Below are positions 12,845 through 14,509 of a stretch of DNA of 64,000 bases, piece after piece. The DNA is from Escherichia phage teqhal. Numbering within the stretch: position 1 is the stretch's first letter; the number at the start of each line of letters is the position of its first letter. Position numbers and translations under genes: made by a program. The stretch lies in sequence record MN895435.1. One strand, 5' to 3'. The notes under the pieces were generated by a model. That model did no database searches. It was given only the letters and a program-made list of their open reading frames with translations, and was not told where the DNA came from.

Positions 12845-13180
12845 ATGTCTGAAGTACAACAGCTACCAATTCGTGCTGTCGGTGAATATGTTATTTTAGT
12901 TTCTGAACCTGCACAAGCCGGTGATGAAGAAGTTACAGAATCAGGACTTATTATCGGTAAACGTGTCCAAGGTGAAGTTCCTGAACTGTGTGTAATTCAC
13001 TCTGTCGGTCCTGATGTTCCTGAAGGTTTTTGTGAAGTTGGTGATTTGACTTCTCTTCCAGTTGGTCAAATTCGAAACGTTCCGCATCCTTTTGTAGCTC
13101 TGGGTCTTAAGCAGCCAAAAGAAATTAAACAAAAATTCGTTACCTGTCATTATAAAGCTATTCCGTGTCTTTATAAGTGA
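12845..13180 (+). CDS. 31: co-chaperonin (GroES analogue) for capsid folding
   Basis: 111 aa [22 protein letters not shown]...; matches recalled T4 gp31. Confidence 0.92.
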
Positions 13181-13188
13181 TATAAATA
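13181..13188 (+). promoter_or_regulatory. late promoter motif TATAAATA
   Basis: Exact TATAAATA immediately after gene 31 stop, ~140 bp upstream of rIII. Confidence 0.45.
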
Positions 13189-13327
13189 ATAATATGAATT
13201 GGGTGTCGGAATAATAAGTTAACCGAACAATTCTATGTGGTAGTCTACAACTGAGAGATCTGTCGAAAGAAGATGAAATTCAGAAGAACGTGACTACCGA
13301 GTTTTAATCTCTAACGAGAATTTTTAA

Positions 13328-13576
13328 ATGATTAAACAATTACAACACGCTCTTGAACTGCAACGAAACGCATGGAATAATGGTCACGAAAACTATGGCG
13401 CATCTATTGATGTTGAAGCCGAAGCTCTTGAAATCCTGCGTTATTTCAAACATCTGAATCCTGCTCAAACTGCATTAGCTGCTGAGCTTCAGGAAAAAGA
13501 TGAACTTAAATATGCTAAGCCTTTGGCTTCTGCTGCACGAAAAGCAGTTCGTCACTTTGTGGTAACACTGAAGTAA
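13328..13576 (+). CDS. rIII: lysis inhibition accessory protein rIII
   Basis: 82 aa MIKQLQHALELQRNAWNNGHENYG...; matches recalled T4 RIII. Confidence 0.9.
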   Translation: MIKQLQHALELQRNAWNNGHENYGASIDVEAEALEILRYFKHLNPAQTALAAELQEKDELKYAKPLASAARKAVRHFVVTLK

Positions 13577-13821
13577 TTTATTGGAGATTCACTGCCTTAG
13601 TGTGAGCTAAAATCGAGGAGCCATCGAACTGTCTGATTAATGATTTGCGAATCATTATAGTTTTAAGACCCCGGCAGTTTTATGGTGTACCTCTTGAATG
13701 TGAATGATGACGGGTTTATGGTTATCCTGGTCGTTAAATATTCAAAAACCTATGTTCCCCTTGAGGGCTTGCGCAGGCAATGCCAATAAGTCCTGCATTT
13801 TCATTTAAAAGAGAATTTATA

Positions 13822-13998
13822 ATGGCAAAACAAGCTAAAGCAAAGAAAGCAGTTGAAAAGAAAGTTGGTGATTCTAAACGCGCTGGTTACAAGCGTGGGT
13901 CGAACTCTCGTATCAATCAAACTGTTGAGAAGATCATGCGCCGAGCACGTGCGGTTCTTCGAGATGATGCTTCTCGTTTTGGTAAGCAGAAAGCATAA
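13822..13998 (+). CDS. small lysine/arginine-rich basic protein (58 aa; T4 30.9 position)
   Basis: MAKQAKAKKAVEKKVGDSKRAGYKRGSNSR...; followed directly by a strong terminator. Confidence 0.55.
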   Translation: MAKQAKAKKAVEKKVGDSKRAGYKRGSNSRINQTVEKIMRRARAVLRDDASRFGKQKA

Positions 13999-14002
13999 GT
14001 TG

Positions 14003-14032
14003 AGGACTCCTTCGGGAGTCCTTTTTTATTTT
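14003..14032 (+). terminator. rho-independent terminator
   Basis: aggactcc-ttcg-ggagtcct stem-loop followed by ttttttatttt. Confidence 0.8.
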
Positions 14033-14051
14033 CCAAAGATTGCACAAAGTT

Positions 14052-14081
14052 GTTTACAGTATGGTTCCTTTGTGATAGTAT
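14052..14081 (+). promoter_or_regulatory. early promoter
   Basis: GTTTAC 14052-14057, spacer, TG-a-TAGTAT. Confidence 0.6.
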
Positions 14082-14108
14082 TATCTTACACAAACAAAGG
14101 AGAATAAA

Positions 14109-14441
14109 ATGAAAACGATTAATCTGAACGCTACAGTTAAAACTAAATGCTTCAACGGTAAATATGATGAAACTATGTGGTTCTTAATGGCAGTTGAAGG
14201 TGATATTATTGAAGTAGAAACAACAGAAGGTATGGGAACAGATTTCACCTTTACAATTCAAGTTCATAATTTCTTTACTGGTTGGATTTATGAATTGAAT
14301 ACAGTAATCGTTGGAAAAATTGAACAAAATGAATTAGGCGAATGGCATTATGTTACAGCTCGCCAACGTGCCGAACGCTTAATTGAGAAGATGAAAAAAG
14401 TTGGTAAACTTGACATGCAGCATTGGAAAGTAGTAAAATAA
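14109..14441 (+). CDS. hypothetical protein (110 aa)
   Basis: ORF with SD aaggag. Confidence 0.65.
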   Translation: MKTINLNATVKTKCFNGKYDETMWFLMAVEGDIIEVETTEGMGTDFTFTIQVHNFFTGWIYELNTVIVGKIEQNELGEWHYVTARQRAERLIEKMKKVGKLDMQHWKVVK

Positions 14442-14443
14442 TT

Positions 14444-14472
14444 GTTTACTTTGGTACAGGATATGATATTAT
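14444..14472 (+). promoter_or_regulatory. early promoter overlapping a GGTACAGG/CCTGTACC inverted repeat
   Basis: GTTTAC 14444-14449, spacer, TG-a-TATTAT; inverted repeat 14453-14460 / 14476-14483. Confidence 0.6.
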
Positions 14473-14509
14473 ATACCTGTACCGCAATTAAACATCTCGG
14501 AGAATAAAA

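Follow-up and report, generated by a model that had tools for sequence, protein, structure and literature searches.

Conserved, covarying RNA folds in the rIII-30.9 spacer of T4-like phages, a possible structured leader of gene 30.9

The mRNA of bacteriophage T4 gene 32 carries an operator in which a 5′ pseudoknot nucleates the binding of gp32, and gp43 and RegA are other translational autoregulators of this phage. T4-type phages also contain PeSL cassettes, in which an early promoter is combined with a stem-loop terminator (Arbiol et al., 2010, PMC2839356; PMC4122927), and, as noted in a 2010 review, neither a riboswitch nor a trans-acting regulatory RNA of T4 had been functionally characterised (PMC3014915). 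Here we describe a gap of 245 nucleotides (nt) between the genes rIII and 30.9 of Escherichia phage teqhal, which lies in a stretch of 64,000 nt from sequence record MN895435.1 (the window, to which positions refer unless another phage is named). Comparison with relatives indicates that the gap is built from conserved sense-strand RNA folds, that in T4-like phages these folds are linked to 30.9, and that they enclose no promoter motif. We tentatively favour, at a little under even confidence, the reading that the gap is a structured, cis-acting leader of 30.9 in a bicistronic rIII-30.9 mRNA, possibly bound by the product of the gene, gp30.9; both the control of translation and the identity of the binding partner are what we infer from this arrangement. 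T4 is the reference lytic phage, and its own spacer holds these covarying folds without annotation and outside Rfam, as do hundreds of sequenced phages.

The gap of the window comprises four sense-strand RNA modules, A, B, C and D (Table 1). Module C is a predicted H-type pseudoknot whose loop holds GGUUAUC and whose linker in the window is GUUAAAUAUUCAAA. In an alignment of 27 distinct copies the unpaired parts are nearly invariant (linker GUUAAAUAU..AAA, loop GGUUAUC), and the two helices are found with many different sequences: stem 1 as GAC(G)AGG/CCUGUC, GUGGA/UCCAC or GUC(G)UAG/CUAGAC, and stem 2 as GGUU/AACC, UGUGAG/CUCACA, GUAGU/ACUAC, UUGGUU/AACCAA, UAGUAGUU/AACUACUA or GAUGG/CCAUC. 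Covariation in the stem and in the helix joining the loop to the 3′ tail was compared with 500 shuffles and with slid partners, controls that are heuristic and are not R-scape statistics; paired cells made up 82.2% of the observed alignment, 67.0% after shuffling and 32-50% with slid partners, and the covariation score was 0.41; shuffled alignments gave 0.16, none of the 500 reaching the observed value, and slid partners no more than 0.118. Both sides change in 8 of the 13 pairs, four per helix. The aligned sequences are mutually related and were chosen partly by pattern. These data are strong comparative evidence that module C is a conserved RNA fold with covariation in both of its helices.

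The loci compared comprised 40 from IMG/VR retrieved via rIII, 39 retrieved via gp30.9, GenBank records, and metagenomic contigs encoding distant gp30.9 homologues. Module C was found in 37 of 37 distinct rIII-30.9 gaps and, with newly fetched distant loci included, in every T4-like locus examined that has 30.9, in lineages across which rIII itself is only about 70-75% identical. A covariance model of the pseudoknot, whose E-values are rough because its calibration was short, recovers it in the 30.9-bearing loci searched except L097-L099; L097, the most distant relative, has the same topology when read by eye, with the wholly different pairing GCGGG/CCCGC and GGCAGUGG/CCUCUGCU that the model missed. 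Across the 64-kb window the model returns one copy at 61 bits, the next match scoring 18 bits. Six more distant T4-like phages (L035-L038, L040 and L041), which have rIII without 30.9, yield no copy with this model. A loose pattern scan of IMG/VR gave mostly chance matches, of which the covariance model accepted 11 loci only: all T4-sized or known T4-like contigs, plus one phi92-like contig. In five of the six loci without 30.9, a conserved gene of about 103-120 amino acids (aa) with the motif DSQDAGY..TLETPR lies 0-9 nt after rIII or overlaps it, and in L036 a gap of about 250 nt follows rIII before the next open reading frame (ORF) of at least 45 aa.

Searching Rfam 15 with window positions 13100-14200 at E ≤ 10 gave only sub-threshold, terminator-like matches at 13954-14037 and none in 13577-13821; six related loci (29 kb, including a further module, E, described below) gave no match at E ≤ 1, and the preQ1-I model RF00522 had no match in the window region. 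In architecture only, as judged from the covariation, module C resembles the preQ1-I fold, an H-type pseudoknot with an A-rich tail pairing back to the loop, and more generally the small pseudoknot aptamers of the preQ1-I and SAM-II/V class, in which, within about 45-50 nt, a short stem carries a conserved loop and an A-rich linker leads to a 3′ tail that pairs with that loop. It differs from these aptamers in its longer linker (13-14 nt), the variable length of stem 2, the lack of an evident expression platform and the lack of a metabolic gene context, the next gene encoding gp30.9 and not a queuosine or preQ1 biosynthesis or transport protein. Like the gene 32 operator, it is an H-type pseudoknot in a T4 mRNA leader upstream of the regulated cistron, with feedback by the encoded nucleic-acid-binding protein only proposed in the present case. 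The two are unlike in sequence and locus, and in module C the pseudoknot is followed by further hairpins rather than by an unstructured A/U-rich tract; binding would, moreover, be by gp30.9. The open-access literature yielded no description of the gap, of gp30.9 or of T4 small RNAs matching them; earlier mention in subscription-journal work of the Nivinskas laboratory is possible.

The rIII-30.9 gap was found whenever 30.9 is present, with a length of 120 to about 400 nt, and is a mosaic of discrete modules that are swapped, deleted or reordered between relatives. Similar sequence occurs in 767 INPHARED phage records, which together with the covarying helices argues that the gap is not chance sequence. 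The modules are ordered A-B-C-D in the window and in T4, A-B-E-C-D in phage G4498, and A-B-F-C-D, F-C-D, E-C-d1-G, H-C-A′-E-d1-G or d1-C-hairpin in other relatives; PP01 and L034 show a precise deletion of the distal part of B. All T4-like relatives examined with 30.9 share a core of C, the hairpin d1, a further hairpin d2 and a short hairpin pairing the Shine-Dalgarno (SD) region, with A and B being accessory modules specific to the T4 group. In its minimal form, the 137-nt gap of L097, the leader is reduced to pseudoknot, d1, d2 and SD hairpin, and the minimal gaps of 120-137 nt, that of L097 included, begin at the rIII stop codon. BLAST found no copies of the modules elsewhere in the 64-kb window, except for a relative of a "G-type" d2 upstream of rIII. 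The gap and module E had no BLAST match in 5,426 E. coli genomes, and are therefore not host-derived mimics at the sequence level.

Table 1. Coordinates of the rIII-30.9 region in the window and the basis of each assignment.
Feature	Position	Strand	Basis
T4 late-promoter motif TATAAATA, nearest promoter motif upstream	13181-13188	+	motif scan
rIII coding sequence, 82 aa, upstream cistron of the proposed common transcript	13328-13576	+	ORF and T4 comparison
rIII-30.9 gap, 245 nt	13577-13821	+	ORF list and relatives
Module A, small hairpin CAC 13590-13592 / GUG 13600-13602, 7-nt loop, preceded by UUUAUUGGAGAUU	13577-13614	+	stem variants read from sequences
Module B, long hairpin; basal stems GAGG/CCUC, GCCAU/AUGGU, AACUGUC/GGCAGUU	13615-13701	+	RNAalifold
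Module B apical hairpin AAUGAUU-UGCG-AAUCAUU (the inverted repeat)	13639-13656	+	sequence
Module C, predicted H-type pseudoknot, starts with GAAUGAUG	13702-13755	+	covariation, covariance model
Module C stem 1	13709-13714 with 13726-13732	+	covariation
Module C stem 2	GGUU 13720-13723 with AACC 13747-13750	+	covariation
Module d1, small hairpin GUUCCCCUUGAGGGCUUG, CCC/GGG stem	13754-13771	+	near-invariant in relatives
Module d2, hairpin GCAGG/CCUGC, conserved loop CAAUGCCAAUAAGU	13772-13797	+	relatives
Weak hairpin AUUUUC/GAGAAU pairing the SD region of 30.9	13797-13816	+	pairing probability
Gene 30.9, 58-aa basic protein	13822-13998	+	ORF, homologues
Intrinsic terminator, 9-bp stem (5 G-C pairs), UUCG loop, stem-loop 14002-14023, then UUUUUUAUUUU	14002-14030	+	scan, folding energy

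The elements at the 3′ end of the gap lie closest to the start of 30.9. The hairpin d1 has the consensus GUWCCCYUNGAGGGCUUG, its stem being GCC/GGC in three lineages. The position of d2 behaves as a hairpin slot: the T4 group carries the loop AAUGCCAAUAAG on a GCAGG/CCUGC stem, relatives hold other hairpins, and in L019 and L034 the loop of the T4 group sits on a different stem, AACUGG/CCAGUU. The hairpin d2 was also considered as an attenuator terminator and rejected, the U run being short and interrupted in most variants. The SD sequence of 30.9 is weak, as the original prediction had described it; it is GAGAA, 7-11 nt 5′ of the AUG. Its five bases have a pairing probability of 0.56 in Shigella phage Sf24 (L001), identical here to the window, and of more than 0.5 in 28 out of 37 relatives. 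Changes in the SD segment are accompanied by changes in the anti-SD segment, giving UUUUC/GAGAA, CUCC/GGAAG and CCUC/GAGG.

Modules upstream of the core also show compensatory change. The inverted repeat that had drawn attention to the gap (AATGATT 13639-13645 and AATCATT 13650-13656, loop TGCG) proved to be the tip of a longer hairpin, module B, for which RNAalifold on 14 variants predicts 25 pairs that are hardly ever broken; compensatory changes are seen in five (GCCAU/AUGGU in the window vs GCCGU/ACGGU in T4, for example). Module B contains invariant G·U pairs, which would be A·C on the other strand. Module A is present in only some relatives and has stem variants CAC/GUG, CGC/GCG and UGC/GCA. 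A long-range pairing between the first bases of the gap (UUUAUUGG) and the d2 loop (CCAAUAAG) was rejected, since relatives without module A keep the loop. Module E, which is absent from the window, is an RNA of about 135 nt without annotation that lies between B and C in G4498 (L002, 1409-1556) and elsewhere in the gap in others. A single copy is present in each of 404 T4-like phage records. The RNA has 38 predicted pairs, 18 of them compensatory, with a GNRA hairpin (stem variants UCGA, UAGA and CUGA) and, from sequences read by eye, apparent kissing loops (GAUGG/CCAUC versus CAAUGA/UCAUUG). Two ORFs annotated as "hypothetical protein" overlie it in G4498.

Folding energies of the sense and antisense sequences were also compared. 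The sense strand is favoured in 36 of the 40 distinct gaps compared, with a mean difference of 6.6 kcal/mol and a difference of 19.2 kcal/mol in the window, where the gap has z-scores of -1.99 (sense) and -0.61 (antisense). Scans of 13577-13821 detected neither a sigma-70-like site nor a late-promoter motif; inspection of the gap by eye revealed no convincing middle promoter with a MotA box, and no scan was aimed at MotA boxes. The same region contains no terminator-like site by scan, its hairpins lacking a U run of 5 of 8. The late motif upstream of rIII would drive a late transcript spanning rIII, leader and 30.9. In a published T4 time course the rIII and 30.9 RNAs are both classed as "early" and the RIII protein as "middle" (PMC9697503 supplement). 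Downstream of 30.9, the strong terminator of the original prediction has a folding energy of -15.4 kcal/mol (z = -3.2); with a G+C-rich stem-loop and a U run it qualifies as intrinsic (rho-independent), and it is annotated as a terminator in G4498.

All elements of the original prediction (gap, inverted repeat, small Lys/Arg-rich ORF and terminator) were located where it had placed them. Its suggestion of a long structured leader agrees with the conserved sense-strand folds, with compensatory changes, that lie directly 5′ of 30.9 in every T4-like lineage examined with this gene; covariance across T4-like phages had been proposed as a check, and the helices of the gap do covary. The idea of a self-contained unit is not supported: the gap has no promoter motif inside it, and the folds of minimal relatives start at the rIII stop codon. 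Because there is no internal promoter motif and the nearest one precedes rIII, the unit would consist of rIII, leader and 30.9, ended by the terminator. The small RNA that the original prediction offered as its alternative would have to be released from the mRNA, and is kept in play by the copies that phi92-like phages carry without 30.9.

The gap had been described as free of any convincing ORF, and this was borne out. Its plus-strand ORFs are of at most 35 aa with no frame kept among relatives, and an in-frame upstream ATG at 13780 is not kept either (L011 has ACG plus stop codons). Gap lengths of 241, 244 and 245 nt among near-identical phages reflect frame-breaking indels, and whole segments are inserted or deleted as well. 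As the ORFs are unconserved, the indels are not multiples of three and module swaps are frequent, we conclude that the gap contains no conserved coding frame. A protein encoded in the gap, whether the old "11.1 kDa protein in Gp30-rIII intergenic region" or the two ORFs of G4498, finds no support from conservation. In some records gene callers place ORFs of 36-102 aa in the gap, among them ORFs of 95-102 aa that run through it.

The protein gp30.9 of the window is 100% identical to those of T4 and Sf24. Its homologues form 94 clusters, from T4-like phages of enterobacteria only and with uninformative names; sequence searches found no Pfam or PDB relative, and its PHROG family is of unknown function. 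An invariant motif, SKRAGYKRxSNKRI, is followed by one predicted helix, and the AlphaFold model has a disordered basic N-terminal half and a single helix at residues 33-53 (mean predicted local distance difference test score, pLDDT, 67). These predicted features are compatible with an arginine-rich RNA-binding peptide. In several GenBank and UniRef entries (H38, H89-H91, P0010) a gp30.9 homologue of 58-68 aa, or an ORF of the gap, bears the label "1,4-alpha-glucan (glycogen) branching enzyme", which is evidently an annotation error being propagated. Recognition of the spacer as structured RNA would correct such recurring mis-annotations, both the spurious spacer ORFs and the "glucan branching enzyme" labels on gp30.9 homologues.

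Copies of the cassette were also found outside the T4-like phages. A total of 17 records of phi92-like phages (Justusliebigvirus), phi92, PD06 and muut among them, carry modules A-D and no 30.9; their copies are 96-100% identical to one another, and that of muut, the one checked, is 99.6% identical to the window. In these phages (L044, 2292-2625; L090, muut, NC_052657, 1501-1837; L100) the cassette lies in sense orientation in a tRNA operon, on the tRNA strand between tRNA-Gly and tRNA-Gln. Codons 43-82 of rIII are joined to it at the start codon of 30.9, and it is flanked by a direct repeat, TTTATTGGAGATT, which includes the first 8 bases of tRNA-Gln; the circular permutation suggests that a mini-circle integrated. 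In the A150 variant, module F and a different module C allele have been acquired, and the rIII fragment is frameshifted. The phi92-like copies may be neutral passengers renewed by recombination, and because they are so similar to the T4 ones they make no case for independent purifying selection.

In being short intergenic modules that are shuffled, inserted and deleted between T4-type genomes, with transfer through a circular intermediate suggested by the permuted phi92-like copy, the modules resemble PeSL cassettes. Unlike these, the modules of the gap have no sigma-70-type early promoter (the nearest is at 14053-14081) and no terminator, and they are conserved as covarying RNA folds; a PeSL-like terminator-promoter pair is present just downstream, at 14002-14081, outside the gap. 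Short RNA modules would thus join genes and promoter cassettes among the elements shuffled between phage genomes, even between genera. A further comparison is with T4 rnaC and rnaD (species 1 and 2), which are also structured phage RNAs of about 120-140 nt, the phi92-like cassette being likewise located in a tRNA operon. On reading they show no sequence resemblance to the modules, and rnaC has a tRNA-like arm; ARAGORN found no tRNA-like genes in four related loci, which included the longest gaps and did not include that of the window.

In our favoured, if tentative, model of a cis-acting leader, the folded core would set the yield of gp30.9 from an mRNA on which the supply of RIII also depends: it would restrict the access of ribosomes to a ribosome-binding site that is weak and partly paired, and would double as the binding site of a regulator. 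The most economical candidate for this regulator would be gp30.9 itself, since it is rich in arginine and lysine and has a single helix; feedback of this kind would be like that of other T4 translational autoregulators. Several observations weigh against such a leader. The pseudoknot is 55-85 nt from the AUG, too far for direct occlusion of the ribosome, and the hairpins over the SD sequence, of 3-6 bp and with a mean pairing probability of 0.59, are weak. Module order varies, with C on either side of E and d1 on either side of C, which is unexpected if leader geometry matters. The gp30.9 protein is unclassified in the T4 proteome time course, though its RNA is early (PMC9697503 supplement), and in phi92-like phages the A-D cassette is kept within a tRNA array although 30.9 is absent. 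The variable order, the elaborate module E and the phi92-like cassette keep a processed, trans-acting RNA in play as a live rival, which we regard as possible, though doubtful. Here the rIII-30.9 transcript would be processed to release one or more stable non-coding RNAs with a role in trans, either on their own or complexed with gp30.9 in a ribonucleoprotein; they might, for instance, modulate an RNA-binding factor of the host or phage or serve as a decoy for it. The adjacency of 30.9 would then reflect shared function instead of cis-control. Modules that behave as autonomous cassettes, inserted, deleted and reordered, would suit such an RNA, as would the multi-helix module E of relatives, more elaborate than a typical leader, and the residence of the phi92-like cassette in a tRNA operon without 30.9; the T4 tRNA operon already yields two stable RNAs of unknown function, rnaC and rnaD. 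Cutting from the mRNA would be needed because there is no internal promoter, yet no processing sites are known, and by our scans the gap has neither promoter nor terminator of its own. In addition, module C was never away from 30.9 in the T4-like phages searched, and the phi92-like copies are too close to the T4 ones to show independent selection. A bolder version, which we consider speculative and rather unlikely, makes the spacer a docking site for autonomous, horizontally mobile structured RNAs, such as the pseudoknot cassette and the module E of relatives, that act in trans as ribonucleoproteins with gp30.9, decoys or sensors; if true, these RNAs would be useful enough for capture by the unrelated phi92-like genus in its tRNA operon.

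Hairpins between cistrons might also serve only the stability or processing of the message, as barriers to 3′-5′ exonucleases after rIII, as 5′ protection of a processed 30.9 message, or around RegB or RNase E sites. The gap does contain several stable hairpins and two GGAG sequences (13583-13586 and 13617-13620); RegB cleaves GGAG in intergenic regions, a reaction that secondary structure blocks (PMC3014915), RIII modulates RegB activation via ribosomal protein S1 (PMC9409239), and the hairpin family that supplies d2 in some relatives is also represented upstream of rIII (13239-13300). However, these GGAG sequences misfit the RegB consensus GGAGRAYARAA and fall in modules A and B, which are missing from many relatives, and a barrier needs a stable helix only, not a covarying pseudoknot with an invariant 13-nt linker or a near-invariant d1; we judge this explanation unlikely. 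Still less probable is a ligand-sensing riboswitch of the H-type-pseudoknot kind, formed by module C, possibly with d1 and d2, and controlling 30.9. The pseudoknot is built like an aptamer, with a stem of 5-6 bp, a loop and an A-rich linker that are both conserved, a loop-pairing 3′ strand and nearly invariant unpaired positions, but nothing in Rfam matched it even at E = 10, the length of stem 2 ranges between 4 and 9 bp, and gp30.9 is no enzyme or transporter that would hint at a ligand. No clear alternative terminator or anti-terminator is apparent, only a short, interrupted U run following d2, and no riboswitch has been characterised in T4 (PMC3014915). That the gap has no RNA function at all, being decaying DNA, a recombination patchwork or protein-coding, is very improbable, even in a locus this plastic, where gene callers place ORFs of 36-102 aa in some records and mini-circle-mediated shuffling is documented for T4-type phages (PMC2839356). 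Compensatory changes keep the helices and stability is strand-asymmetric; module C is retained where rIII has diverged to about 70-75% identity; the ORFs are unconserved, and indels among near-identical relatives break the frame. By virtue of the covariation this explanation is largely refuted. The pseudoknot of about 50 nt and the 58-aa protein offer a small, genetically tractable target for asking how T4-like phages tune this gene of unknown function, which accompanies the lysis-inhibition gene rIII.

The surrounding region is of T4 type. Window positions 13300-14120 are 99.6% identical to Sf24 and 97-99% identical to many Tequatrovirus genomes, and the plus-strand gene order cd, 31.2, 31.1, 31, rIII, 30.9, 30.8, 30.7 matches that of T4, whose counterpart gap (244 nt, 130541-130784) is likewise without annotation. 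Just after the late promoter and upstream of rIII, a long hairpin at 13239-13300 has a basal stem GGUAGUC/GACUACC, an internal loop UACAAC / AAGAACGUG and a tip capped with GAAA. This hairpin and the "G-type" d2 that precedes 30.9 elsewhere among T4-like phages are members of one family (48 nt at 87.5% identity; the basal stem of the latter is changed to GGGAGC/GCUCCC). It is followed by a small hairpin, UCUC/GAGA, that covers the ribosome-binding region of rIII. After 30.9, the stem-loop 14002-14023 and the early-promoter-like sequence TTTACA-17-TAGTAT (14053-14081) form a terminator-promoter arrangement of the PeSL type. A similar arrangement follows 30.8 (14410-14480), where TTGACA-18-TAAAAT lies at 14410-14439 and TTTACT-16-TATTAT, at 14445-14472, overlaps a GGTACAGG/CCTGTACC hairpin.

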